A stretch of 64,000 bases of DNA. It comes from Bacillota bacterium (GTDB lineage: Bacteria > Bacillota_I > Bacilli_A > RF39 > UBA660). Under the pieces are notes generated by a model. That model was not told where the DNA came from. It saw nothing but the letters and a program-made list of their open reading frames with translations, and did no database searches. The stretch is from positions 31,304-95,303 of the forward strand of contig SVAW01000002.1 of assembly GCA_015059195.1 (NCBI GenBank), given 5' to 3'. The translations under genes and the position numbers were made by a program. Shown one piece after another: positions 14,319 to 57,968 of this stretch. How positions within the stretch are numbered: position 1 is the first letter of the stretch; each line of letters starts with the position of its first letter.

Positions 14319-14798
14319 CTATTTAGTGACATAGCTCATAACTATAGCTTCATTGTCATCATTATCTTGTTTTGTAAATTCAACAATAACAAAGATTAAA
14401 ATTAGTACTAAAATAACCACTAAAGCTATATATGCAGCATAGGTAAAGATTGAAATTTTACTTTTTCTCTCAATTGTGTATGGCGATTTAACCACATTTT
14501 CTTCTGGCTTAACTAATTCTTTCGCCTGTTTGATATCTTCTAATGATATCTTAGAGGTATAATCAAATAAATACTCATTAAACTCACTTACTAAATCTTC
14601 TTTATTTAATCCTAGATATTTAGAATAATCTCTAATAAGATATTTTAAATAATAAATATCTTTGAAATTTTCCATATCTCCATTCTCTAAATTTTCAATT
14701 TGGCTAACTTCTAATTTTAAGTCTTCGGCAGCTTCACTGGTACTAATGCCCATAGCTTCTCGAGCTTCTTTTAGCTTTTCACCAATCTCTTTCATCAT
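14319..14798 (-). CDS. rodZ: RodZ-like cytoskeleton protein (XRE-type HTH plus TM segment)
   Basis: HTH MKEIGEKLKEAREAMGISTSEAAEDLKLEVSQIENLENG followed by a single TM segment. It sits upstream of pgsA-recA, as B. subtilis ymfM does. The longer ORF in the track (to 14873) would run into the RNase P RNA. Confidence 0.65.
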   Translation of the reverse strand: MMKEIGEKLKEAREAMGISTSEAAEDLKLEVSQIENLENGDMENFKDIYYLKYLIRDYSKYLGLNKEDLVSEFNEYLFDYTSKISLEDIKQAKELVKPEENVVKSPYTIERKSKISIFTYAAYIALVVILVLILIFVIVEFTKQDNDDNEAIVMSYVTK

Positions 14799-30464: not shown

Positions 30465-32141
30465 CTAACGTTGCTTATCTACTGAATCTTCACCCATTTC
30501 ATATGCGTTTTCTGAATCAGTAATTGATATTGGGCCTCCAAAGAATTCCTCCAATGTTTGATGAAGAGTTTTATCTTCTGTCTGTGTTCCTGATTGAGTC
30601 CCTTCTGTAACTACAGGTGCATCTTCCATAACCACACCTTCCGTAGGTGTATCCGGAGTAAGATCAACAACAGCACTTCCTTGTTCTGTATAATCTTTTA
30701 ACGCTATACCACTACCTAACGCAGTTCCAACCTCATCCCCATGTGAAATAGCTTCTCCCTGTACAATGTCAGAAATATTAGCTACGGATTCGCCAGGCGA
30801 CAATTCAACATTTTTTTCTACAGTATCTTCTCCTCCAAGAGTATCATCTACAATCGGATCTGAGTCTAAAGAATCTGAAGGACCTGATGGTACATCTGGT
30901 TTTGGAATCAACTCATCACTTTTATCTTCCCCATCAGGATCTGGAACAATATTCTGATCAGTATCTTGTTGAATATCTTCTTGATCACCTAAGGTAATGT
31001 CTTCTTCGTCATCACTATCAAATGGTTGCCCATGTATAGATACATCGTCATTACTAAACTCTATATAATCCAAAGTTGAAGTACATTGTTTTAGACCTAA
31101 TACAGCTAATAAGGCTAAAGCCGCTGCAATAAACTTTTTATAATGTTTTTGCAAAAACTCTTTAATTTTTCCAGTTTTCTTTTTTTCTATTAATTCTTCA
31201 CTAGAATCTTCAACTACAGCTTCACGTTCCTCATCCAATTCAGATGGAGTGGTAAGAGCAGCCTCATAGTCAACTTCTTCATCTTTTTTTGGTAATTCCA
31301 AAACCGGCATTGTTGTAAATGTTTCTGGTTCCTCTTCAACAACTGCTTCTGATTCTACTGCTGGCTCATCTTTTTTTCTTTCAGCATCTGCAATTAATCT
31401 ATCTAAAACTGCATAAGTATCAAAAGTAATATGTTCTTTTCTTGTTTGTAAAGCAAGTACTCCTGCTTGTAATCTTGCAAGCTCATCTTGATCTAAGCGT
31501 AATTGATGTCTGTTAATAATACTACTATTATTTTTTCTACTTTCTTTTACAGCTTTTAATCTGTCTTGTTTAGCAAGCAATATTTGTCTTTTTTTATTGT
31601 TAGCCTCAAGCAACTCACTATAATCTTGAACATCAGTAGCATATAGTTGTTGATACCCTTCAAATTCAACTTTGCGAGATTTTTTTACCTCTAATTCACT
31701 AGTTAATTCTTCCAACTCTTCAACACTTAATTGCATTCTTAAATTCTTACTAACAGCAATTTCATTTTTACGAAGTCTTCTTTCAATGGCCGCAATATCA
31801 GTATCTAATTGTGCTATATCATCAGAATAGCTATCATAAATACGTTGGCCTAAATCTTTTAGCTCTTCATATTCTTTATCTTCTCTATCTAGTGTTGCAA
31901 GTTGTTCTGCAAAAGATTCTTCTAATAATTCTTCAGTTAAATCTCTTGTTTCTTCATTAGGATTTTTGTACAAATAATTATCAAGACTAGCTATTTTTGC
32001 TTCTAATTCAGCAATTTGTTCTTCATAATCAGCTATAGTCGCATCTATTTCAGATACTTCTTGATCAATTTCAGCTCGAGGAGCTGAAGACGTTTGAGCT
32101 CTTAATTGTCTTAATAATTCAATTCTCTCTATATCTGTCAT
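30465..32141 (-). CDS. Coiled-coil membrane protein with an acidic low-complexity ectodomain
   Basis: The N-terminal 330 aa or so are heptad-rich and E/L/Q-rich. A single TM segment (KKFIAAALALLAVLGL) is followed by a D/E/T/P-rich C-terminal tail. Confidence 0.55.
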   Translation of the reverse strand: MTDIERIELLRQLRAQTSSAPRAEIDQEVSEIDATIADYEEQIAELEAKIASLDNYLYKNPNEETRDLTEELLEESFAEQLATLDREDKEYEELKDLGQRIYDSYSDDIAQLDTDIAAIERRLRKNEIAVSKNLRMQLSVEELEELTSELEVKKSRKVEFEGYQQLYATDVQDYSELLEANNKKRQILLAKQDRLKAVKESRKNNSSIINRHQLRLDQDELARLQAGVLALQTRKEHITFDTYAVLDRLIADAERKKDEPAVESEAVVEEEPETFTTMPVLELPKKDEEVDYEAALTTPSELDEEREAVVEDSSEELIEKKKTGKIKEFLQKHYKKFIAAALALLAVLGLKQCTSTLDYIEFSNDDVSIHGQPFDSDDEEDITLGDQEDIQQDTDQNIVPDPDGEDKSDELIPKPDVPSGPSDSLDSDPIVDDTLGGEDTVEKNVELSPGESVANISDIVQGEAISHGDEVGTALGSGIALKDYTEQGSAVVDLTPDTPTEGVVMEDAPVVTEGTQSGTQTEDKTLHQTLEEFFGGPISITDSENAYEMGEDSVDKQR

Positions 32142-32158
32142 ATATACCCTCCTTATTC

Positions 32159-33691
32159 TTACTTTCTATCCCTATATTGTAATTTTACTTGATATCTTAA
32201 ATTATCAGCTGTTTCAATATCCCTTAAGGTATTTACTTGATATCCTAAGGACTGATACTTAGCAATCAAATCAGCTTCACTTAAATAATCATCAACAATT
32301 GCTGTCCAATTGTTAGAATTAACATTTGTAACTCTTTTAAATACAACCTTTGTTCTTGTTTCAATTTCTCTAGTGTCAGCATAAGGTTTTGGCTGTGTTA
32401 GTTGATATTCTGTCCAACTTCCCCAGATACCTTCACCCACTTTTGTTGCTCCTTTTGAAGGTGATGTTGAATAATACTTACTTGTGGTTGTAGTTACTGT
32501 TTTATAATATCTAGATACTTCTATTTCTGTAGAACTATCTTTTACGGCACCATTAACTGGCGCTGTTAGATAGTAATTTTTTTCTCCACTCGCATTACTG
32601 CTTTTACTTGGATAATATTGTTTTGTAGTTGATTCAACTATATTTCCGCATTCAGTTTCATCATCATTTAAAAGTGTTCCCGCTGGGCATGTAATAGAAC
32701 AAACTGTACCTTCACCAACAATTTTACTTCCATCACAAGTGTATTGTCTTCCATATTCTTTCCAATCACTACCCTTTGATGAACAAGACTCTGTGAATGC
32801 TCCAAAGTTACCCTTAACACAATAATATCCTGAACCTTGTCTAAATTGTTCATATCCTGCCTCACATGGAGTAGTAGAATATTTCATTTCGCCATCATAA
32901 CAAATATACCTATATAAAGATGCTTTTGTTACTGTTGGATCTGCCTCTTTTTCCCAAACTTTATTAGAAACAGTTGTATACCATTTCCATCCAGTAGTAG
33001 TACCTTCTTTATTTGTATACTCACCACTTGGTGCACTTGCATAATACACTTTGTCATCAGAAGAATAGTATTTTTTAGTTGTAGTCTGCCACTTCCACAT
33101 TAAATCACGATAACGATAATATTGAGTGGAACTTATAGTTTGGTAATTAATGCCAGTTAGCTCATCTAACCAGGCTTCCTCTTCTTTAGTTGCATCATCT
33201 ACTGCACCTTCTTGGTGTTCTCCCTTAAATGTGAATCGAACATCTGATTTGTCAGCGACTAAATCACTTTCAAAGCCATCTTTCCATACTGTGAAATTAT
33301 CATCAGCCATAGCTTCACCACACTGTAATACTGGAACATAATGATAGTTTCCACTTTCTAATTTGCATACTTTTACATATGTCTTATCATTATTGCAAGT
33401 AACATAGTCTTCACTTGAAAGTAAATTTTTATTTACAAGAGTTCCTAAAGTAACTGTAGAACATTCTCCCTTTGCTTGTGGCAACAAATTAACACCTGAA
33501 CTATAGTATTCTTTTCCAGCTTCTAATAAACTGCGTTCTAAATCCTCATTCTTATTATTTAATACACAACCTTTTACTAATAAAAACACAATAAGCGCTA
33601 AAATTAAGCCACCTAGAATCATTAATATTAATTTGGGCCAATTCTTTTCTTCCCCTCTATCTTTATAATATCCTTCACCATTCATGTTCAT
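32159..33691 (-). CDS. N-terminally anchored Cys-rich surface protein (paralog family with 15578-16678)
   Basis: TM anchor, then LEAGKEYYSSGVNLLPQAKGECSTVTLGTLVNKNLLS...HYVPVLQCGE, followed by a Y/T/K/C-rich region. Confidence 0.55.
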   Translation of the reverse strand: MNMNGEGYYKDRGEEKNWPKLILMILGGLILALIVFLLVKGCVLNNKNEDLERSLLEAGKEYYSSGVNLLPQAKGECSTVTLGTLVNKNLLSSEDYVTCNNDKTYVKVCKLESGNYHYVPVLQCGEAMADDNFTVWKDGFESDLVADKSDVRFTFKGEHQEGAVDDATKEEEAWLDELTGINYQTISSTQYYRYRDLMWKWQTTTKKYYSSDDKVYYASAPSGEYTNKEGTTTGWKWYTTVSNKVWEKEADPTVTKASLYRYICYDGEMKYSTTPCEAGYEQFRQGSGYYCVKGNFGAFTESCSSKGSDWKEYGRQYTCDGSKIVGEGTVCSITCPAGTLLNDDETECGNIVESTTKQYYPSKSSNASGEKNYYLTAPVNGAVKDSSTEIEVSRYYKTVTTTTSKYYSTSPSKGATKVGEGIWGSWTEYQLTQPKPYADTREIETRTKVVFKRVTNVNSNNWTAIVDDYLSEADLIAKYQSLGYQVNTLRDIETADNLRYQVKLQYRDRK

Positions 33692-39649: not shown

Positions 39650-39680
39650 AAAAATTAAAAGGATGAATTTTATTCATCCT
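39650..39680 (-). terminator. Intrinsic terminator ending the Tad/T4SS cluster
   Basis: The minus strand has AGGATGAAT-AAA-ATTCATCCT followed by TTTTAATTTTT. The virD4-like stop codon lies in the loop. Confidence 0.7.
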
Positions 39681-41885: not shown

Positions 41886-42575
41886 CTAACTATTATTTTT
41901 CTTATTTTTATATACAAATATTCCTACAGCAATCAATCCTACAATTGCAACACCTAATAAAACACCGATTACTATAAGTAGGGTCATATGTGATTGAATG
42001 AAATTTCTTATAACTACATCCCATCTTATCTTATCACTATACGAAAAATAAACTTCTTCTTTAGTGTGCGCATCAAACTCCCATATATGTTGATTCTTAT
42101 TTACATTAATCATATCAGCGTTCGATGCTAAAATTTGATATTCTGAATTCAACCTAAAAGTAATCTTATCTAACGTTAACATACAACCTTCATCAAATTC
42201 ACCACATACAAATCTTGAATTATTATATCCTTTTAGCCTAACTGTAGTTACATTTCCTTTTTTATTAACTAAAACAGTATTATAAAGTGTTTTGATTATA
42301 TCACTTTGTGATATCCACATAGCGTCATTAAATTTATGTGCAATTTCTACAGTAGAACTAGTAACATCATATTCAACATTTTCTTGTTTTAATGATGGAA
42401 TATTCTTAATATTATCTTGTATTAAAGTATCTAAATTCCCTAATCCATCACTACGTCCATATTCAAAATATAATTTTTCTTCAAAAGAATCAACATAAAT
42501 ATCTAAATTATATGTTACACTGCTACAACCAGTTAAAATGAAGGCCATCATCAATATCCCTAATATTTTTTTCAT
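41886..42575 (-). CDS. Lipoprotein with an additional C-terminal TM anchor (T4SS accessory)
   Basis: Lipobox MKKILGILMMAFILTGC, the C-terminal TM segment LLIVIGVLLGVAIVGLIAVGIFVY, then basic residues. The ATG at 42575 follows GGAGG, 1 nt after the upstream stop. Confidence 0.6.
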   Translation of the reverse strand: MKKILGILMMAFILTGCSSVTYNLDIYVDSFEEKLYFEYGRSDGLGNLDTLIQDNIKNIPSLKQENVEYDVTSSTVEIAHKFNDAMWISQSDIIKTLYNTVLVNKKGNVTTVRLKGYNNSRFVCGEFDEGCMLTLDKITFRLNSEYQILASNADMINVNKNQHIWEFDAHTKEEVYFSYSDKIRWDVVIRNFIQSHMTLLIVIGVLLGVAIVGLIAVGIFVYKNKKNNS

Positions 42576-42576
42576 A

Positions 42577-44193
42577 TTAACAACTACCTCCATTTATTGC
42601 ACAAACTTCAATAAATTCCTGATTTGCTAAAATATCAATCCCATTAGCATAGTTATTAAGTGCTACCAACGGATTTATTACCTTGCCGTCTCCATTATGC
42701 ACTTCAAAGTGTAAATGTGGTCCTGTAGAACAACTATCCTCTGCAGTTGTCCCGCCAACATATCCAATAACCTGCCCCTTAGAAACATTAGTACCTACAG
42801 GCAAAGTAGATAATAAGTTGTTAGATCTTCTATTTAAATGCACATATCTAGTATAATATACCGCACCAGAAGCTGTTGTGTGTTTTAGTTTAATTATACT
42901 GCTACCACACGTTACCGTCGTAGCAGTAGTAACAGCTTCTACCACACCATCTTCAAAAGCAAGAATTTGCGTATCATATCCGGCACCACCAATATCTACA
43001 CCTTTATGCGCTTGATACACTTTTTTTGTTGGATGGCAACGACAATTTGCAGGTTGGGAAGTCACTCTTAAATTTAAACCATCAGGAAGCATAGTAAATA
43101 GGCCATCTGTATTTTCCACTATAGTGAGTGTACCATTATTTAATATTCCACCCATTTTTAATATCTCATTAGCAATTTCAGCTTTAGTTCTAACTCCTTC
43201 GCGGGCAGCATCAGGATAATTATTTCCTATATAATTATTTATTAAATACTCACGATACTTAATAGCACTGCTAGAACATTCAGAGACTTCTACAAAGCCA
43301 CTTTCATCAACTGTGTCTTCATCTGTTATTTCTTCTCCTTTTAAGTATACTTTTATCAAACCATTAATTTTGGAAGTGGCATTACCACCTCTACCATCTA
43401 CATTCAAATAGTCAAAATAAGACTTATTTATATTATCTTCATCTGTTCCAGAATCATTATCTTCTTTTACCATCTGACCATAAAAAATGGTTGCAGTTAT
43501 CAAATCCTCATTAATCTTACAACTTCCTTGATAATTTGCAATGGCCTTGTTAAGTTCCTCATAATATCTTGACTGCTCATTCTGTTGACATTCCGAGGCC
43601 ACACACCAACCATCCCCACTAAACCAATTGCCAAGTTTTTCAAAGAAAGCACCTATACCATTTAGTAAATCACCAATCCATGCAATTGGTGCCAAAATTA
43701 AAGTTAATGTAGCTGCTATTATAAACAACGTCAACAGAGCCGACGCAACCGTTGTAATGAGTATAAATATTAGCTGAAGCTTGATTTGCTTAAATCCTTT
43801 TTCTACCAGTGCCTGCCCTGCATCACTATCCATGAATTTATCAATGATTTTATCTCTAATTCCCTTGGGAATCCATTTAGTATATGGTACTACTCCGGCA
43901 GCCTGTTTTAAAGCCTCCTTAGCTACCTCAGTACCCATACCTTGGACATTGGGTAGTCCTGTAGATGTTTTTCCTTTATTTTCCTGACCTGCGCCTTTTT
44001 TCTTCTTATTAGCTCCTTTATCAGAGCCATCACCAGACGCTCCCTTACCTTGTTGTTTTCCTTGATGTTGAGCGTTCTGGTTAGCCTTATTTTGTTTAAT
44101 TTTGTCAGAAAGTTTTTCGCCATTTGGTAATGTTGCTTTACTCGCATTACCTTTTACCTGAGGTGCTTTTTTCATTAAATCTTTGCCTTTCAA
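42577..44193 (-). CDS. Membrane-anchored M23 peptidoglycan endopeptidase (T4SS wall hydrolase, VirB1/PrgK/TcpG functional analog)
   Basis: The C-terminal M23 motifs are HKGVDIGG (HxxxD) and GPHLHFEVH (HxH). The N-terminal 125 aa or so are K/G/Q/N-rich, followed by hydrophobic helices. A TTG start at 44193 lies 6 nt after AGGTGGTGA. Confidence 0.8.
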   Translation of the reverse strand: MKGKDLMKKAPQVKGNASKATLPNGEKLSDKIKQNKANQNAQHQGKQQGKGASGDGSDKGANKKKKGAGQENKGKTSTGLPNVQGMGTEVAKEALKQAAGVVPYTKWIPKGIRDKIIDKFMDSDAGQALVEKGFKQIKLQLIFILITTVASALLTLFIIAATLTLILAPIAWIGDLLNGIGAFFEKLGNWFSGDGWCVASECQQNEQSRYYEELNKAIANYQGSCKINEDLITATIFYGQMVKEDNDSGTDEDNINKSYFDYLNVDGRGGNATSKINGLIKVYLKGEEITDEDTVDESGFVEVSECSSSAIKYREYLINNYIGNNYPDAAREGVRTKAEIANEILKMGGILNNGTLTIVENTDGLFTMLPDGLNLRVTSQPANCRCHPTKKVYQAHKGVDIGGAGYDTQILAFEDGVVEAVTTATTVTCGSSIIKLKHTTASGAVYYTRYVHLNRRSNNLLSTLPVGTNVSKGQVIGYVGGTTAEDSCSTGPHLHFEVHNGDGKVINPLVALNNYANGIDILANQEFIEVCAINGGSC

Positions 44194-48797: not shown

Positions 48798-49151
48798 TTA
48801 TGATATATAAGGTGTACAAGAAGAAGTACCATTTATAAAACAGTTTACACAATTCCATATTGTTGTATCTTCATCAGGAGCAACAACATTAAATAATACT
48901 TCTACAATAATGAACACAAAGAACACAATTGCAGCCGATAACAATCTTTTTATAAAAAGTGTTTGTGACTTTTTAATTTCATCTTCTTTTTGTGCTATAA
49001 CAGCCTTCCCAAAATCTAACATACCAAATATAATCAATAATACTGGTACACCAATTTTTAATAAATCTACAATAGTACTTGTTAATTGTGGTATAATTCC
49101 AGCCATTTTAGGAATAATACTTCCACATTTATAATACGTTGTTAATAACAT
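48798..49151 (-). CDS. VirB2/TrbC-like two-helix pilin-like protein, copy B
   Basis: 117 aa reading ...KCGSIIP...LLKIGVPVLLIIFGMLDFGKAVIAQKEDEIKKSQTLFIKRLLSAAIVFFVFIIVE...WNCVNCFINGTSSC. The layout is two TM helices, a charged loop and a Cys tail. The RBS is AAGGAG. Confidence 0.6.
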   Translation of the reverse strand: MLLTTYYKCGSIIPKMAGIIPQLTSTIVDLLKIGVPVLLIIFGMLDFGKAVIAQKEDEIKKSQTLFIKRLLSAAIVFFVFIIVEVLFNVVAPDEDTTIWNCVNCFINGTSSCTPYIS

Positions 49152-49165
49152 AACCTCACTCCTTC

Positions 49166-49552
49166 TTAAGCTCTACAATCTAAAACTTCATTTCCTTCTG
49201 CATCATATGCATCTGCAGTCTCAGAAGAAACACCATTAATTAAACAGCTAATACAGTTCCATACTTTTGTTTCCTTACTAGCAACTAAATTGAACACTAC
49301 TTGAACAATCATTACTACAAAGAACACTAAAGCAGCAGACAATAATCTTTTTAAGAATGTTTGTTGTGACTTTTTAATTTCATCTTCTTTTTGGGCCATT
49401 ACAGCCTTCCCTAAATCTAACATACCAAATATAATTAATAATACTGGTACTCCGATTTTAATTAGTGTAACTATCAAACTAACGATATTAGGAATCATTA
49501 TGTCCATAGTTAAAATACCATTACCACATTGAATACTGTCTAAAATATACAT
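49166..49552 (-). CDS. VirB2/TrbC-like two-helix pilin-like protein, copy A
   Basis: 128 aa and a tandem paralog of copy B. A core of about 110 nt is nearly identical at the DNA level. The RBS is AAGGAGGA. Confidence 0.6.
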   Translation of the reverse strand: MYILDSIQCGNGILTMDIMIPNIVSLIVTLIKIGVPVLLIIFGMLDLGKAVMAQKEDEIKKSQQTFLKRLLSAALVFFVVMIVQVVFNLVASKETKVWNCISCLINGVSSETADAYDAEGNEVLDCRA

Positions 49553-49575: not shown

Positions 49576-49604
49576 ATCATACTTTATTTAACAATATTTG
49601 TCAA
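49576..49604 (-). promoter_or_regulatory. Internal sigma-A type promoter upstream of the VirB2-like genes
   Basis: Minus strand reads TTGACA, a 17-nt spacer, then TATGAT, within the 63-nt gap after the TadZ-like gene. Confidence 0.55.
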
Positions 49605-49615
49605 TAATATTTAAC

Positions 49616-50581
49616 CTATTGTTTAGAAAAACCAAGTTTTCTTAACAACTCATCTAAAACCCCGTTCTTCTTATGATCGTCAACCGGTGGCATATTAAAG
49701 AAAACATTAATCCTTGATTCATACTCAAAATCTTTTACATCTTTTTCATCTAACATACTAATATTTAGCACAACCGTCTTATTTCTCAATTCGGCTAAAA
49801 TATTTGGTCTAGTCATAATAAGTTTATTTAATTTAACAATAGAAGGTTCAACTAAACAAATTACCTTATGACACATTGCTTCAGCTTGAACGCTATTGTT
49901 TATATCAATCAATATAACATCTTTTTCTTGATGTTTGTTAATAGTATTGCTAACTTGATCTGAATCAACAGATATCATTTGTTTATCATTATAATAAACA
50001 AAGTCGCGTCTATCAACTTCCATCGGCAAAACAACATAGTTTTTCTTTAATTGTTTATACATCATATAAGTTAAAGTAGTCGCCCCAGAATGATTGGTTA
50101 TGTTTTTAATTCCCAATATCATTGGGCCTGTTCTAGGGGCCTCTACAGTCTCATAACGAGTAATTACTCTTTCTTTAATTTCTTGACCTTCAGGAACTTC
50201 ACCAAATTGTTGATATTGAGCTACATCCCTATAACTATTCGGATTGTTGTACAAATACATTATTCCTTCTTCATTAGTTGTAAAATTATAAATTCCCATC
50301 GAAATCAATTTAGATAAGTATTGAGGAGATGTAGTTTCTGGCGAATTATCTAATAAGAGGATAACTTTACTCATATCTAGTGAAATTGATAGTTTTTGAA
50401 TGTTTTTTACGTCTCGATAATCTTGAATAGAAGTTATATCAAGAATCATTTTATTAAAGAAAAAGGTTTCAAAATTCTTTATTATTTCTTCAACAGGAAA
50501 AATACCGTCTATTCTTCTTATTACCTCAATATCTAAATTAGATAGTAGGTCTTTATATTTATTAGCAACTATTACATTCAT
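49616..50581 (-). CDS. TadZ/CpaE-like protein (receiver-like N-domain plus ParA/MinD-like domain with degenerate P-loop)
   Basis: The N-terminal 120 aa or so show an alternating beta/alpha receiver-like pattern (VIVAN...MILDITS...VILLLDN). The C-terminal part ILGIKNITNHSGATTLTYMM occupies the position of the KGGxGKT P-loop but lacks the Lys and Gly residues. The gene sits inside a tad locus. Confidence 0.4.
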   Translation of the reverse strand: MNVIVANKYKDLLSNLDIEVIRRIDGIFPVEEIIKNFETFFFNKMILDITSIQDYRDVKNIQKLSISLDMSKVILLLDNSPETTSPQYLSKLISMGIYNFTTNEEGIMYLYNNPNSYRDVAQYQQFGEVPEGQEIKERVITRYETVEAPRTGPMILGIKNITNHSGATTLTYMMYKQLKKNYVVLPMEVDRRDFVYYNDKQMISVDSDQVSNTINKHQEKDVILIDINNSVQAEAMCHKVICLVEPSIVKLNKLIMTRPNILAELRNKTVVLNISMLDEKDVKDFEYESRINVFFNMPPVDDHKKNGVLDELLRKLGFSKQ

Positions 50582-50595
50582 AAGTTCCTCCTTTA

Positions 50596-51012
50596 TTAAC
50601 CAAAAACTTTTGTCTCTCCATATACGGGGATATTAATATAGCCTCCAATTATTGGAAAATCAAAATACATATATGCAATTACTTTATAATATTTTCCTCT
50701 GTGCGAATTATAAGTATAAATGCAATATAAATAATCTGTTCCGTGATATGTTTCACTTGTAGAACCCTCCATAGTTGGACAAGTCCTACCATTATTATAT
50801 CGGTAGCCAATATCGCTCAAGGTATTATTAATATCAGCATTAATAATACCGCCGGAAAAATCTCCATCATGATGCTCAATAACATCTATAATTCGATTCT
50901 TTACCCTAAAGGCTTTTGTATAACTTATTGATGTAACCAATAAAGCCATTACAACAACAAGAAATATTATCATTATATTCATTAACATAGCATTACCTGT
51001 TGCTGCTTTCAT
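50596..51012 (-). CDS. Minor pilin-like protein (TadE/TadF position), paralog 2
   Basis: N-terminus MKAATGNAMLMNIMIIFLVVVMALLV. It shares YTKAFRVKNRIIDVIE, YCIY and MYFDFPIIGGYINIPVYGET with the neighbouring 138-aa ORF. Confidence 0.5.
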   Translation of the reverse strand: MKAATGNAMLMNIMIIFLVVVMALLVTSISYTKAFRVKNRIIDVIEHHDGDFSGGIINADINNTLSDIGYRYNNGRTCPTMEGSTSETYHGTDYLYCIYTYNSHRGKYYKVIAYMYFDFPIIGGYINIPVYGETKVFG

Positions 51013-51023
51013 TTTACACCCCT

Positions 51024-51440
51024 TTATCCTAATTTTCTTATAGTGGCAGTCTTAGTATACACAGGTATTCTAAAAAGCCTACCTACTATTGGAAAATCAA
51101 AAGTCATATAAGTTGTAACACCATAAGAGTATACATTCCCCTCGTCAAAACGGTAAACACAATACCCCTCAGCGCCAGCTGCTCCACTTATTGCAGCCTG
51201 TCCATCCTTATTGGGACAATTAATACTATATTTTTGATATCCATAACTAGTTATAATATCGCGTATACTTTGTATAGAATAAGCATTGTATCCCTCATTT
51301 GTTTCTATCGTGTTAACAATTTTGCTGTTAACGCGATAAGCTTTCGAATAACCAATAATTCCCATAATAGCAAAAAAAGATATAGCTATAAAAACTATAA
51401 TTATATTTAACAAAAATGTATAACTAATACTTTCTTTCAT
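51024..51440 (-). CDS. Minor pilin-like protein (TadE/TadF position), paralog 1
   Basis: It has an N-terminal hydrophobic helix and shares YSKAYRVNSKIVNTIE, YCVY and MTFDFPIVGRLFRIPVYTKT with paralog 2. Confidence 0.5.
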   Translation of the reverse strand: MKESISYTFLLNIIIVFIAISFFAIMGIIGYSKAYRVNSKIVNTIETNEGYNAYSIQSIRDIITSYGYQKYSINCPNKDGQAAISGAAGAEGYCVYRFDEGNVYSYGVTTYMTFDFPIVGRLFRIPVYTKTATIRKLG

Positions 51441-51463
51441 AGCTTATCTCCCTGTTTTTGTAA

Positions 51464-51682
51464 TTATGGACATAGTGTATCTACAGTCGCCATATCATTA
51501 GCCCATCCTGCAACACCTGTACAGCTTCCATTTTCCCAGACTCCACCTAATGATTGACAACAAGCAGAACGTTTTGTAGAATTTACTACACTAGTAATAA
51601 TTGGTGTTGCAATAGCAGCAACTACACCGATTAATACTAATGTAATTACAGTCATATTTGCTTCTCCAGCAGCTTCTTTCAT
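51464..51682 (-). CDS. Flp-like major pilin candidate, Cys-rich C-terminus
   Basis: 72 aa reading MKEAAG/EANMTVITLVLIGVVAAIATPIITSVV followed by a 4-Cys tail. It lies directly after tadC and has its own strong promoter. Confidence 0.5.
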   Translation of the reverse strand: MKEAAGEANMTVITLVLIGVVAAIATPIITSVVNSTKRSACCQSLGGVWENGSCTGVAGWANDMATVDTLCP

Positions 51683-51745: not shown

Positions 51746-52528
51746 CTAAATATTAAGCATTGACATCATTGAGACTAAAAGAAGAACTACAATGCCTCCA
51801 CCCGTAACCATTAACATAGTCATCGTTTTCTTTTCCATTGTCTCTAGTCTATCCTTATATTTTTGCTCTCTCGCCTTGTTTTGCAAAGACGAAATAGTCT
51901 TAGAAAACATAATTAACTGTTCCTGTTTTTCTTCTTGAGAACCTAATCCAAGTCGGTATAGTAACCTCATCATTCGCATTGAATCTCGAACTGGATATCT
52001 ATGCGCAAATTCCATATAAGGATCTACGGATGAATCCCCAGCCTCGATTTTATCAACCAATTTAATTAAGCCCTCTTTAAAAATATCTGGCGCAGTTGAA
52101 ACCGAGCGACGAAGCGCTACTGGCACAGTATAATGTTGAATCAATATTTCTAAACTCTTTAAATAATAAGGCAACATTAAATCAATATTATATAAATTTC
52201 TTTTATAATAAGTTTTAAGCTGCATATATGGCATCTTAAATACGAAATACGCAACAATTAAACACACCAATAAATATACAAAACTCATTTGACTTAACAA
52301 TAATATAAAAATAGCAAAGAATGCGATCAATGCATTTCTAACTCTATCACCAAACAATTTCTTTGTATCTAAATCTTTACCATACTTTACAGTAAGTAAA
52401 AACTCATAATCTTCTTCCTTTAAAAAAGCAAAATATGGTTGCGTTTCTGTAATAAATTTTTTAGAATCCAATCGTTTGTTTACAATAAGCATCAAAATAA
52501 TAATAGCACCAATTATAATAAAAACCAT
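51746..52528 (-). CDS. tadC: TadC-like platform protein (T2SS-F family)
   Basis: Membrane topology, the T2SSF-like soluble domain (...APDIFKEGLIKLVDKIEAGDSSVDPYMEFAHRYP...) and position all fit TadC. Its start overlaps the tadB stop (TAATG). Confidence 0.7.
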   Translation of the reverse strand: MVFIIIGAIIILMLIVNKRLDSKKFITETQPYFAFLKEEDYEFLLTVKYGKDLDTKKLFGDRVRNALIAFFAIFILLLSQMSFVYLLVCLIVAYFVFKMPYMQLKTYYKRNLYNIDLMLPYYLKSLEILIQHYTVPVALRRSVSTAPDIFKEGLIKLVDKIEAGDSSVDPYMEFAHRYPVRDSMRMMRLLYRLGLGSQEEKQEQLIMFSKTISSLQNKAREQKYKDRLETMEKKTMTMLMVTGGGIVVLLLVSMMSMLNI

Positions 52529-53430
52529 TATTCAGCACCTACATTCTCATTATAATATTTTTCACCACTAAGTAAAAAATAAGTATTCACAATTAAGATT
52601 CCATGCAATAAAAGTTGAATTCCAATATCATCAAGCAGTCCTATATAAGTTGAAACTCCTAGCAAAAACTGGACTAACATAACCATCAAATATAAGACAA
52701 CTCCAAATTGAACAAATTTTTTGTGAAACGCTGCACGATCAATTCGATCTCGATACACATTTTCTACTAGCATATCTATATCTAATGACATATTTTCCAA
52801 AGCCTCACTCGAATCTTTCGCACCTTCATTAGTAATTTGCAAAAACAATTGATGCATATTTCTAACTACATAATAATTATACTTTGTATTCATAAACTGT
52901 ATTGACTGATCAATAGTTCCGTTTTGATAGGCCATATCTATCATAATTTTCACATCTGTCTTAAAAGGATCTTCTAAAACATCTGACTCGTATACTCCCT
53001 CTAAAGCCTTAACAAAACTTTGAGTTGTAGCAAATTCCATAATTGTATTTGTAGTATATACCTGAACCTGTTCAAAAATAAATTCGCTATATATTCTCTT
53101 ACATCTCAAATAAGCTAAATAAGGAACAACCAGTACTGCAGCTGCAGAATAAATTATAGAAATAATTATATTGTAAAAATACAAATACGATACACCAAAA
53201 GCTGCTGCGGCAAAAATTAAAGCCTGAGTTGCATATTGTTTAGGTGTATACTCTTGTCCTAACTCTTTTACCTTGGCCCTTACTTCTTTAAAAGAATATG
53301 GGGCATATTTGTTATAAACATTGCCAACGCCTGTAATTATATATTTATATACATTTTTACCAGCATTCTTTCGATAAACTATTACAAATATCATTACCAA
53401 TGCTATAACAATAAATATAACTTTATCCAT
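52528..53430 (-). CDS. tadB: TadB-like platform protein (T2SS-F family)
   Basis: 300 aa with an N-terminal TM segment, a central soluble domain and C-terminal TM helices. It lies directly downstream of the TadA ATPase. Confidence 0.65.
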   Translation of the reverse strand: MDKVIFIVIALVMIFVIVYRKNAGKNVYKYIITGVGNVYNKYAPYSFKEVRAKVKELGQEYTPKQYATQALIFAAAAFGVSYLYFYNIIISIIYSAAAVLVVPYLAYLRCKRIYSEFIFEQVQVYTTNTIMEFATTQSFVKALEGVYESDVLEDPFKTDVKIMIDMAYQNGTIDQSIQFMNTKYNYYVVRNMHQLFLQITNEGAKDSSEALENMSLDIDMLVENVYRDRIDRAAFHKKFVQFGVVLYLMVMLVQFLLGVSTYIGLLDDIGIQLLLHGILIVNTYFLLSGEKYYNENVGAE

Positions 53431-53441
53431 AATATACCCTC

Positions 53442-54569
53442 CTATTCAAATATAATATCTATATCATCACTTATATGTATTATAGAATCATCCTCATCTT
53501 CTAAAATATTATTTCGAACAATCGCGTCTGGTGCAATATTAACCCCTTGTGCAGATAAATACTCTAACAAATATTTACTAGGATTATTTCTATATACTTT
53601 TCCATCTATGCCTTTTTTATAAATAGTGTTATGCTTTGCTTCATTTGTTTTATCATCAACATAAAACTCAGTTACTTCACCTATTTCACGTACAAACCTA
53701 CCGGTTTGTTTGCTTTGATAACCCCTAATCATAACGCCTAATTGTACATATCTATGAATAGTTTTTAAAAACTGTTCAACATCTTGGTTAGTTTCAAGCA
53801 AACTATACATACGCATAGGTATTGATGAAGCCTTATCAGCGTGTATAGTAGATAAAATGTTGTGCCCTGAAGAAATTGAATTTCTTACAGCCATAACCGC
53901 TTCAGCACTACGCACCTCAGAAAGCAATATCCATTTTGGATTTTGTCTCATACAGGTTACAAGTACATCAGAATATGAAGCAATATTATTTGTTTTCATT
54001 GCTACTATATCCCGATGTGGAAATATCCTATCTAAGTGAAGTTCCAATGTATCTTCAATAGTAATAATTTTTTCATTTTCTCTAATATGTGAGCCCAAAT
54101 ATTTAACAAACTCTGTTTTTCCAGAACCAGTCTCCCCACATACTAAAATATTGCAGTGCCCCTCTACGCACTTTATTAAAAAGTCATGAATTTCTAACGT
54201 AATGTAGTTTTCAGCCAAAATTTTTTCTTTTTGCAATCTTATTTTAGCAGGAGTTTTACGCAAAACCACTGCTATTCCATTTTTAGCGATAGATTCATGA
54301 ACAAAATTTAGACGCAACTCTGCGCTTTCCGCATCCAAAAAAGGATGTGCCATGTTAAAGGTTGTTCCCATAACATTGGAACATTGAAAAGCCAATTTTT
54401 CCATAAAGCTATCATTTATATTCGGATTTTCGATTCTAAAAATACCGTGGGATAGTGTTTTTAACCAAATTTGTCCCCCATTACTATAAGAAATATCCGT
54501 TACGTCATCATTTTCTAAATACTGTTTTAATGGCCCGAAATCTATCTGGGAAAAAAATGTATCTTCCAT
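53442..54569 (-). CDS. tadA: TadA/CpaF-family secretion ATPase
   Basis: Walker A VCGETGSGKTEF, Asp box ITIEDTLEL, Walker B ILLSEVRSAEA and His box GHNILSTIHA. Confidence 0.88.
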   Translation of the reverse strand: MEDTFFSQIDFGPLKQYLENDDVTDISYSNGGQIWLKTLSHGIFRIENPNINDSFMEKLAFQCSNVMGTTFNMAHPFLDAESAELRLNFVHESIAKNGIAVVLRKTPAKIRLQKEKILAENYITLEIHDFLIKCVEGHCNILVCGETGSGKTEFVKYLGSHIRENEKIITIEDTLELHLDRIFPHRDIVAMKTNNIASYSDVLVTCMRQNPKWILLSEVRSAEAVMAVRNSISSGHNILSTIHADKASSIPMRMYSLLETNQDVEQFLKTIHRYVQLGVMIRGYQSKQTGRFVREIGEVTEFYVDDKTNEAKHNTIYKKGIDGKVYRNNPSKYLLEYLSAQGVNIAPDAIVRNNILEDEDDSIIHISDDIDIIFE

Positions 54570-54570
54570 A

Positions 54571-55374
54571 CTATGCTCCCGGCGTAATATTATTATCTAT
54601 TTCATTAGGCAAATTAACAGTATTAGCATTTATAAAATCTTTTAGATACTGAGTGCTTACTTTAGTTTCTCCAACCGCCTCAACAGTTCCACCATGAGGT
54701 ACAGGGAATAATTCCACAGCATAAGAATATAAATATTCTGCTTTTCTTAATAATAAATGAATCTCATTGTTAACTCCAAATATAAAATATGCCGGTGTTC
54801 TATTTTCTGTAGTATTTTCAAACACATGTCGCCCATTAGCATCTTTAACAGATAAAACTTCTACATTTTCTAATAGTTTCCCAACCATTACTTTTCCACT
54901 GTCATCAATCGCCTTCATATAAATATCAACTTTATTTCCCGGAACAATTGAATTTCCGTAAGTAGTTTCCATATTTACTGAAAATTGATAAGGGATATCT
55001 CCTTCCTTGATATCAACAAATGCAGAATCTGGCATTTCATCAGCAGTTACTAACACATTGCTAAAAAACATACTTCCTTCTGGAATTACAGTGTTATAGT
55101 TCGCATACTTACCAACAATTAAACGTGATGCAGTAACAACCTTTTTAGTTACTGCAGCAGCAGGCATCTCCACATATTCAATCATATTTTCTGTAATCAA
55201 CGTTCTTGGTTGGATTTCTTGTGCTGCCACCGGAACTCTAACCGGTTTTACTTGGGTATTAATCTGACTAGTATAGCCAAAATATAGTAACCCAACAATC
55301 ACAATGACTCCTAAAATTGTAATTGTATTCTTATTCATAAAAAATCTTTTTAAAGCATTTCCAAATCCTCTCAT
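54571..55374 (-). CDS. cpaB: CpaB/RcpC-like Flp pilus assembly protein
   Basis: N-terminal TM segment, SAF-like segment VRVPVAAQEIQPRTLITENMIEYVEMP and RcpC-like segment IVPGNKVDIYMKA...LLENVEVLSVKD. Confidence 0.75.
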   Translation of the reverse strand: MRGFGNALKRFFMNKNTITILGVIVIVGLLYFGYTSQINTQVKPVRVPVAAQEIQPRTLITENMIEYVEMPAAAVTKKVVTASRLIVGKYANYNTVIPEGSMFFSNVLVTADEMPDSAFVDIKEGDIPYQFSVNMETTYGNSIVPGNKVDIYMKAIDDSGKVMVGKLLENVEVLSVKDANGRHVFENTTENRTPAYFIFGVNNEIHLLLRKAEYLYSYAVELFPVPHGGTVEAVGETKVSTQYLKDFINANTVNLPNEIDNNITPGA

Positions 55375-57883: not shown

Positions 57884-57968
57884 TGGTACCGGTAGTCGGA
57901 CTCGAACCGACACGGGATAACCCACTTGATTTTGAGTCAAGCATGACTACCAATTCCATCATACCGGC
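57884..57968 (-). tRNA. tRNA-Leu (anticodon CAA)
   Basis: Minus strand reads GCCGGTATGATGGAATTGGTAGTCATGCTTGACTCAAAATCAAGTGGGTTATCCCGTGTCGGTTCGAGTCCGACTACCGGTACCA. It folds as a cloverleaf with anticodon loop CTCAAAA, a long variable arm, T-loop GGTTCGAGTCC and an encoded CCA. Confidence 0.93.

Follow-up and report, generated by a model that had tools for sequence, protein, structure and literature searches.

Two adjacent open reading frames (ORFs), a and b, in a 64-kb stretch of contig SVAW01000002.1 from a Bacillota bacterium (the whole stretch is referred to below as the window) encode small proteins predicted to fold as two-helix hairpins. On balance, we favor the view that the two form the conserved core of a branch of the T4SS_pilin proteins (PF18895) and serve a type IV secretion system (T4SS), chromosomal and without a relaxase, in uncultured gut Bacilli with small genomes. 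What ties them to T4SS_pilin is a chain of profile matches, which runs through a subgroup of the family that we call c-type.

Profile links to T4SS_pilin

The case for a link to PF18895 rests on that chain. When the a/b profile was aligned with the c-type profile by hhalign, the match had a probability of 99.4% (E = 1.1e-21) over 73 columns, which span helix 1, the loop and helix 2. In turn, 16 of 22 c-type modules matched PF18895 at E up to 0.01, the best at 2.5e-08 and with no serious competitor. The c-type protein of the window scored 26.0 bits as a whole and 29.6 bits as the module alone, relative to a cut-off of 26.6; an array member that adjoins the VirB6-like gene of locus L084 reached 30.1 bits, and close c-type relatives carry a precomputed PF18895 annotation. 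Because a and b match the c-type profile and c-type modules pass PF18895, a and b fall within the T4SS_pilin superfamily, of which they represent a divergent, unnamed branch. PF18895 has been treated as VirB2-like in published work (PMC12102498), and it is by way of this family that a and b appear to be distantly related to VirB2-like proteins. VirB2-like pilin arrays of PF18895 had so far been described from Patescibacteria alone.

A first-pass annotation had read a and b as VirB2/TrbC conjugative pilins. That reading survived in part: the T4SS locus, the hairpin topology and the profile link to PF18895 speak for it, and the direct comparisons do not. Neither a nor b matched TrbC/VirB2 (PF04956) in Pfam at E up to 0.1, and when 150 relatives were compared, PF04956 did not figure in the list of the 25 families matched most often. 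A search of the PDB with the family profile, at E up to 10, yielded no solved pilin, the only hit being a spurious match to an olfactory receptor. Foldseek, run with both the full and the hairpin-only models, returned nothing below E 0.6, and its listed matches were generic hairpins with no pilin among them, although this test discriminates poorly, the two-helix fold being too simple. The long signal peptidase I leader typical of TrbC/VirB2 is absent from a and b, and neither protein matched NF045849, the family of the Mbov_0395 pilin-like protein.

Further points weigh against a pilin. Against PF18895 itself, b scored 13.2 bits (E = 0.095; gathering cut-off 26.6) and a had no listed match. 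Among 150 family representatives, 33 matched PF18895 at E up to 0.01, and the unrelated membrane families DUF621 and MamI matched similarly (44 each); since these score about as well, single-sequence matches to PF18895 are weak evidence. The family consensus sequences, compared with Pfam, gave 19 bits for PF18895, level with the spurious DUF621. The extreme conservation of the loop is atypical of fast-evolving pilins, and a filament could hardly accommodate subunits that all carried large N-terminal domains. To our knowledge, filaments have never been observed, and proteins of PF18895 are themselves without a demonstrated pilus.

The family to which a and b belong has no Pfam or NCBIfam name and comprises at least 7800 clusters at 50% identity. 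A first homolog search produced 1537 matches and a second, exhaustive search 7815 representatives of such clusters, 3273 of them below E 1e-10, and because of these numbers the family must be real beyond chance. Among the approximately 230 best-scoring listed matches of two annotated searches, none bore an informative name and only three had a precomputed Pfam domain, all three unrelated to pilins. Species-representative genomes contain 233 stretches that code for a relative. The best 80 of these come from metagenome-assembled genomes (MAGs) of human and animal guts labeled uncultured Bacilli, Tenericutes or Mycoplasmatota, and include a circular 1.26-Mb genome (OZ006994.1). We infer that the relatives represent the RF39-type lineage, whose genomes are reduced (PMC12306168). 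Several MAGs with this Bacilli-type locus are labeled 'uncultured Muribaculaceae', which is probably an error of labeling or binning.

Within the window the family has four members, not two (Table 1). The third lies outside the T4SS block, amid housekeeping genes, and Pfam gives only a weak DUF898 match to it. The fourth, the c-type gene, is placed between the gene for RNase Y and a TMEM164-family gene that adjoins recA. Proteins of the c-type are 300-530 aa long and carry a signal peptide and a large N-terminal domain ahead of the two-helix module, which is C-terminal; in most relatives their gene comes after the a/b-type array and just upstream of the VirB6-like gene. The arrays of relatives can reach about six full-length genes in one locus.

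A leaderless pair of predicted hairpin proteins

Both ORFs were confirmed on the minus strand as a tandem with a common layout, as first annotated, and all of the motifs listed for them were found: QCG or KCG, GMLD(L/F)GKAV(M/I)AQKEDEIKKSQ, F(L/I)KRLL and WNC(I/V)(S/N)C(L/F)ING. The family hidden Markov model (HMM) scores 194 bits against a and 178 bits against b. Aligned with each other, the proteins are 63% identical over 114 residues (E = 7e-49); their DNA is 72% identical overall and 92.7% identical in a core of 96 nt (49364-49459 versus 48963-49058). Strong AAGGAGG-type ribosome-binding sites precede both genes. The TTGACA-17-TATGAT motif proposed as the promoter of the pair is present upstream, matches 11 of 12 consensus positions and is a putative promoter by consensus match only.

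The helix, charged loop and helix that the annotation described agree with the predicted fold. The AlphaFold2 model consists of two 35-residue helices (residues 18-52 and 55-89) with a two-residue turn between them; the mean pLDDT was 74.7 when the full protein was modeled and 85.9 with the hairpin core alone. Because the loop contains six Lys or Arg residues and the N- and C-terminal tails are acidic or neutral, the charge distribution is consistent with a loop in the cytoplasm and two external tails. The hairpin is further supported by covariation between the helices: position 32 in helix 1 (numbering of the 128-aa ORF) and position 84 in helix 2 form a swapped polar pair in 329 of 374 sequences (Q/K in 160, K/Q in 135 and K/E in 34). 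The Lys of this pair lies in helix 2 in leader-bearing forms and in helix 1 in leaderless forms.

Two other features are conserved throughout the family. The loop, KAVxAQKEDEIKKxQQxFxKR, is near-invariant, and the number of cysteines is even in 331 of 371 sequences, four being the commonest number. Cys9, Cys100 and Cys103 are conserved in 350, 369 and 350 of 374 sequences, respectively, and a fourth Cys is found further on. The location of all four in the predicted external tails suggests that the N- and C-terminal tails may be tied together, through either disulfides or a metal site. Sec-type leaders, which occur in about two-thirds of representatives, end a few residues before the conserved Cys-Gly, while a and b start 8 residues before it and are without a leader. 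Because the leaders of relatives stop just before this dipeptide, the leaderless a and b seem to resemble ready-made mature forms.

The near identity of the core had been attributed to either recent duplication or gene conversion. We rejected a recent duplication: among close relatives, the features of a (Gln in the middle of helix 2, a long acidic tail with a terminal Cys-Arg) are invariably found in the first gene and those of b (Glu in the middle of helix 2, a short tail) in the second, and the core DNA of a in this genome is still 85-87% identical to that of b in other genomes. Because these features are constant, a and b form orthologous groups across species, the pair predating the divergence of these species. 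Most of the core identity comes from protein conservation together with AT-biased codons. As for gene conversion, identical residues were encoded by identical codons in 118 of 154 cases within genomes (0.77) and 79 of 129 between genomes (0.61; pooled Fisher p = 0.006, the comparisons not being independent), a modest excess that makes some gene conversion in the core plausible, as a secondary contribution that would be mild at most. One database protein (P0018) joins an a-type N-terminal half to a b-type C-terminal half, suggesting recombination between paralogs or an assembly chimera.

A T4SS joined to Tad-like genes

The pair lies inside a co-oriented block that extends from a tRNA-Leu gene (57884-57968) to position 39670 (Table 1). 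In order of transcription, the block encodes two envelope proteins, a CpaB-like protein, a VirB11/TadA ATPase, two polytopic proteins, three prepilin-like proteins (72, 138 and 138 aa) and a 321-aa protein, followed by a, b, VirB6-like, PrgI-like and TrsD-like proteins, VirB4, an M23 hydrolase, a 235-aa protein and VirD4. The Tad-like set is thus joined head-to-tail with the T4SS genes, and both are conserved together in relatives. Each prepilin-like protein has a short charged N-terminus and then one hydrophobic helix; the 72-aa ORF (51464-51682) contains four cysteines. No prepilin peptidase was seen in the block, and no block gene matched a relaxase or integrase family; seven block proteins had no family match at all. 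We conclude that the block combines a Tad-like pilus operon with a chromosomal T4SS that has no relaxase and is of the Gram-positive (MPF-FATA) type.

Table 1. Location of the pilin-like genes, the putative promoter and the surrounding block in the window.
Feature	Position	Strand	Remarks
Two membrane or secreted proteins, 218 and 529 aa	55466..57720	minus	No family; head of locus, just after tRNA-Leu
Tad-like machine core	51746..55374	minus	Polytopic membrane proteins (260, 300 aa), VirB11/TadA-family ATPase (375 aa), CpaB-like (267 aa)
Three prepilin-like genes (138, 138, 72 aa)	50596..51682	minus	Read from the sequences; conserved in relatives; no family match
Conserved 321-aa protein	49616..50581	minus	Between Tad-like and pilin-like genes; no family; in 76/83 loci
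Sigma-70-like promoter motif TTGACA-17-TATGAT	49604..49576	minus	In 63-nt gap 5' of ORF a
ORF a (a-type, pilin-like)	49166..49552	minus	128 aa, leaderless; N-terminal tail with Cys9-Gly, helix 1, charged loop, helix 2, CxxC, long acidic tail with terminal Cys-Arg-Ala
ORF b (b-type, pilin-like)	48798..49151	minus	117 aa, leaderless; layout as ORF a, but Glu replaces Gln in mid-helix 2 and tail is short
VirB6-like polytopic membrane protein, 606 aa	46869..48689	minus	Best NCBIfam match Mbov_0396 ICE transmembrane protein, 5e-08; position conserved
PrgI/VirB3-like small membrane protein, 106 aa	46529..46849	minus	Directly upstream of VirB4-type genes; ortholog has weak PF26592 PrgI_like match
TrsD/TraC-like protein, 183 aa	46003..46554	minus	NCBIfam VirB4_plasma positions 96-276; PF26593 in orthologs
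VirB4 ATPase, 594 aa	44219..46003	minus	Best family Mycoplasma ICE VirB4 (VirB4_plasma), 1.6e-108
Cell-wall hydrolase with peptidase M23 domain (VirB1 analog)	42577..44193	minus	Pfam match
235-aa protein	41886..42593	minus	At VirB8/PrgL analog position; position only, no family match
VirD4-type coupling protein, 734 aa	39670..41874	minus	CD1115 family, 286.6 bits, above cut-off
Third family member, 384 aa	36424..37578	plus	Family HMM E 3.5e-35; signal peptide, extracellular domain of 270 aa with Cys, pilin-like module at C-terminus
Fourth family member (c-type), 414 aa	10499..11743	minus	Family HMM E 2.8e-12; divergent; signal peptide, large N-terminal domain, C-terminal module reaching Pfam T4SS_pilin

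The TrsD/TraC-like protein resembles the N-terminal part of VirB4, and a split VirB4 pseudogene was considered as an explanation. We rejected this candidate: the gene is separate in all relatives, the pair of 183 and 594 aa is kept in 70 loci, and it corresponds to TrsD. The stop and start codons of the TrsD-like and VirB4 genes overlap, and the arrangement matches the TrsD and VirB4 pair of the pGO1-type and Patescibacteria systems.

The window is chromosomal and of low GC content (even, at approximately 30%), with genes for RNase P class B, tmRNA, a T-box and a tRNA, as well as for RecA, RNase Y, Lon, SmpB, RNase R, ScpA/B and LigA. Downstream of the block are genes for a rhodanese, RmuC, RNase R and SmpB. 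Conservation was assessed across 83 fetched loci, of which species-representative genomes contributed 79. The whole block, including the separate TrsD-like gene, is syntenic in these loci, with the M23 hydrolase replaced by CHAP or SpoIID enzymes in relatives, and the closest relatives share the ScpA/ScpB flank. Comparison of 8 kb of the locus with plasmids and phages (megablast), a search of plasmids with a leader-bearing family member (tblastn) and a scan of viral contigs each failed to reveal a relative. From the synteny, the shared flank and the absence of plasmid, phage or viral relatives, it follows that the system is a vertically inherited chromosomal fixture and not a mobile element; the even GC content and the housekeeping genes on its flanks agree with this. 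A mobile element between the tmRNA and tRNA-Leu genes was also considered and rejected: the SmpB, RNase R, RmuC and rhodanese genes intervene, and the flanks of the locus are conserved. Two large ORFs between the tmRNA gene and smpB (558 and 510 aa; 30465-32141 and 32159-33691, minus strand) have no Pfam match.

The closest known systems are the T4SSs of Patescibacteria (PF18895/PF04956), which are likewise chromosomal, MPF-FATA-related and relaxase-less and include TrsD, VirB4, PrgI and VirB6 (PMC12102498, PMC12857230). They share with the system described here tandem arrays of divergent two-helix pilin-like genes, small genomes and the presence of a type IV pilus system as well; their arrays of VirB2-like genes have 2-11 members and are essential in one species (PMC12102498, PMC12857230). 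In contrast, the host here is a member of the Bacillota, a and b fall below the PF18895 threshold and are leaderless, the loop is near-invariant, there is a four-Cys signature, and the Tad-like and T4SS genes form one block.

Other pilins offer likenesses of topology and gene position. VirB2 (the Agrobacterium T-pilin), TrbC (RP4) and TraA (F) are also small two-helix hairpins with a basic loop, encoded just ahead of VirB3/VirB4-type genes, and long leaders of the kind they carry are found, as Sec-type leaders, in relatives of a and b. Their termini are possibly tied in a comparable way, by cyclization in T-pilin and TrbC and, we suggest, by Cys in a and b. However, there is no detectable sequence match, the host has no outer membrane, and the helices of a and b are longer (35 residues each). 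CedA1 and TedC of the archaeal Ced and Ted DNA import systems belong, like a and b, to a domesticated chromosomal T4SS in a single-membrane cell; they include unprocessed (CedA1) and leader-bearing (TedC) forms, and Ced works beside a type IV pilus, Ups (PMC9905601). CedA1, now a solved, unprocessed two-helix pilin, was formerly taken for a plain membrane protein (PMC9905601). The PDB search found no sequence similarity to these proteins, and VirD4 is present here but not in Ced.

Within the mycoplasmas, the integrative and conjugative elements (ICEs) encode comparable small proteins (the 'pilin-like conjugal transfer protein' Mbov_0395, MMCAP2_0566, and CDS13/CDS15; PMC12857230), and the VirB4 and VirB6-like proteins of the window match the ICE families best. 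Relatives of a and b match the Mbov_0395 family and the second ICE protein family weakly, in 2 and 13 of 150 cases, respectively, the best Mbov_0395 match (1.8e-05) being far below equivalog level. Presumably the gene for Mbov_0395 lies just upstream of that for the VirB6-like protein, if the tags Mbov_0395-0396-0397 reflect gene order. Unlike the system described here, these ICEs are mobile, with a DDE transposase, and the literature calls their small proteins VirB3-like.

Alternative roles, a possible mechanism and its meaning

The main rival to a T4SS_pilin core pair, which we regard as unlikely but worth serious attention, is that a and b are membrane-resident parts of the channel around the VirB6-like protein, comparable to PrgF (pCF10) or ConC (ICEBs1), and form no fiber. 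PrgF, part of the MPF-FATA core, is a hairpin of two helices and 75 aa whose gene lies just upstream of that for VirB6-like PrgH, with prgG between, and is followed by those for PrgI and VirB4; its position shows that small hairpins are normal there in Gram-positive T4SSs thought to be pilus-free (PMC4027160). The highly conserved cytoplasmic loop would suit a fixed contact with an ATPase, and the buried Lys-Gln/Glu pair a stable membrane hairpin. Against this, the family HMMs score PrgF at approximately 0 bits, and PrgF differs from a and b in lacking both sequence similarity and Cys and in being single-copy. The significant PF18895 link argues for something other than a PrgF-like part, a fixed channel part would not readily account for arrays that reach about six genes and have exposed, hypervariable N-terminal domains, and the conserved external Cys point to an exposed, stabilized structure. 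In pCF10 (L086), PrgF (14546-14773) is glycine-rich and is followed by PrgH, PrgI and PrgJ.

Alternatively, the two-helix module could be a general C-terminal anchor for the display of adhesins or enzymes, with the short copies acting as scaffold or regulators and the T4SS link being genomic only. Variable, often Cys-rich N-terminal domains of at least 60 aa (60-450 aa) do precede the module, which is at the extreme C-terminus, in 67 of 150 representatives; a few have dockerin, Listeria-Bacteroides repeat or lipase-type domains, and two members in the window are outside the T4SS locus. We nevertheless consider this improbable: wherever the flank sufficed, 83 of 83 module loci carry T4SS or Tad-like genes, the short a and b forms are the most conserved even though they have no cargo domain, and an anchor would need neither a conserved cytoplasmic loop nor a CxxC tail. 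There is still less to recommend a and b as subunits or substrates of the upstream Tad-like pilus machine, despite their place between the Tad-like and T4SS genes in one co-oriented block, as the Tad-like set has three prepilin-like genes of its own, each with a single N-terminal helix, a and b have two helices and do not have the prepilin-type leader and single N-terminal helix of type IV and Tad (Flp) prepilins, and their homology points to T4SS_pilin. The idea that a and b are a prophage-derived holin and antiholin or a small toxin-immunity pair, prompted by small tandem paralogs with two helices and a peptidase M23 gene four genes downstream, can be set aside almost entirely, given a locus that is free of phage genes, has relatives in neither phages nor viral contigs and is syntenic and vertically inherited in approximately 79 species, and a hydrolase that is the usual T4SS wall enzyme, with CHAP/SpoIID enzymes in its place in relatives.

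Returning to a and b as a core pair of T4SS_pilin proteins, the family membership, context, topological features and conservation set out above permit a model, of which we infer every step after insertion of the hairpins, including pilus formation, tail stapling and the substrate. Expressed from their own putative promoter, a and b would be produced abundantly and enter the membrane as helical hairpins, with the tails outside and the conserved basic loop in the cytoplasm. The four external Cys (Cys9, those of CxxC and the tail Cys) would join the tails by disulfides or metal, in place of cyclization. The VirB4/TrsD ATPase and the VirB6-like platform would then recognize the invariant loop and extract the hairpins, as is established for VirB2 and VirB4/VirB6-type parts in Gram-negative systems (PMC12857230), and the extracted subunits would be stacked into a tube or a short stalk that spans the wall. 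Paralogs with signal peptides and variable, Cys-rich N-terminal domains may decorate or tip this structure, and the Tad-like pilus encoded upstream may make the first contact with a partner cell, a role that pili play in the Ced system (Ups) and in Patescibacteria (type IV pili; PMC9905601, PMC12102498). Because VirD4 is present, some substrate should be exported, the candidates being DNA without a cognate relaxase, proteins or nutrients.

In its strongest form, which we offer tentatively and think rather doubtful, this model holds that RF39-like Bacilli build a true conjugative-type pilus or stalk of leaderless, Cys-stapled hairpins by means of a domesticated, relaxase-less T4SS fused with a Tad-like pilus, and that it serves them in attachment to other bacteria and in the exchange of DNA or nutrients with these. 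The leaderless core pair, the four Cys, the invariant loop and the fusion with a Tad-like operon are what is distinctive here, and in the open-access literature we found no paper that describes this locus, and nothing relevant on RF39 with T4SS or pili or on pCP13 with VirB2.

The first-pass annotation was in accord with the literature in stating that VirB2-type pilins are not expected in Gram-positive T4SSs: reviews describe these systems as being without them, with Patescibacteria as the sole exception (PMC4027160, PMC12857230), and the origin of the Patescibacteria pilins was left open, such pilins being 'absent in MPF-FATA' (PMC12102498). A Bacillota lineage with a homologous family in a conserved chromosomal T4SS, and with the same list of parts as in Patescibacteria, contradicts that standing statement. 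Two questions can now be tested: (i) whether monoderm T4SSs had pilins before Patescibacteria acquired theirs, and (ii) whether cell-to-cell contact is a requirement for the RF39-like bacteria of the gut, an uncultured group that is common in humans. Experiments could take hold of the invariant loop, the four Cys and the Lys/Gln pair. Should a and b prove to form a true pilus or stalk, it would be the first of conjugative type in a bona fide Firmicute, would imply a partner-dependent lifestyle like that of Patescibacteria, and would suggest that Patescibacteria obtained their pilins from monoderm T4SSs such as this one.

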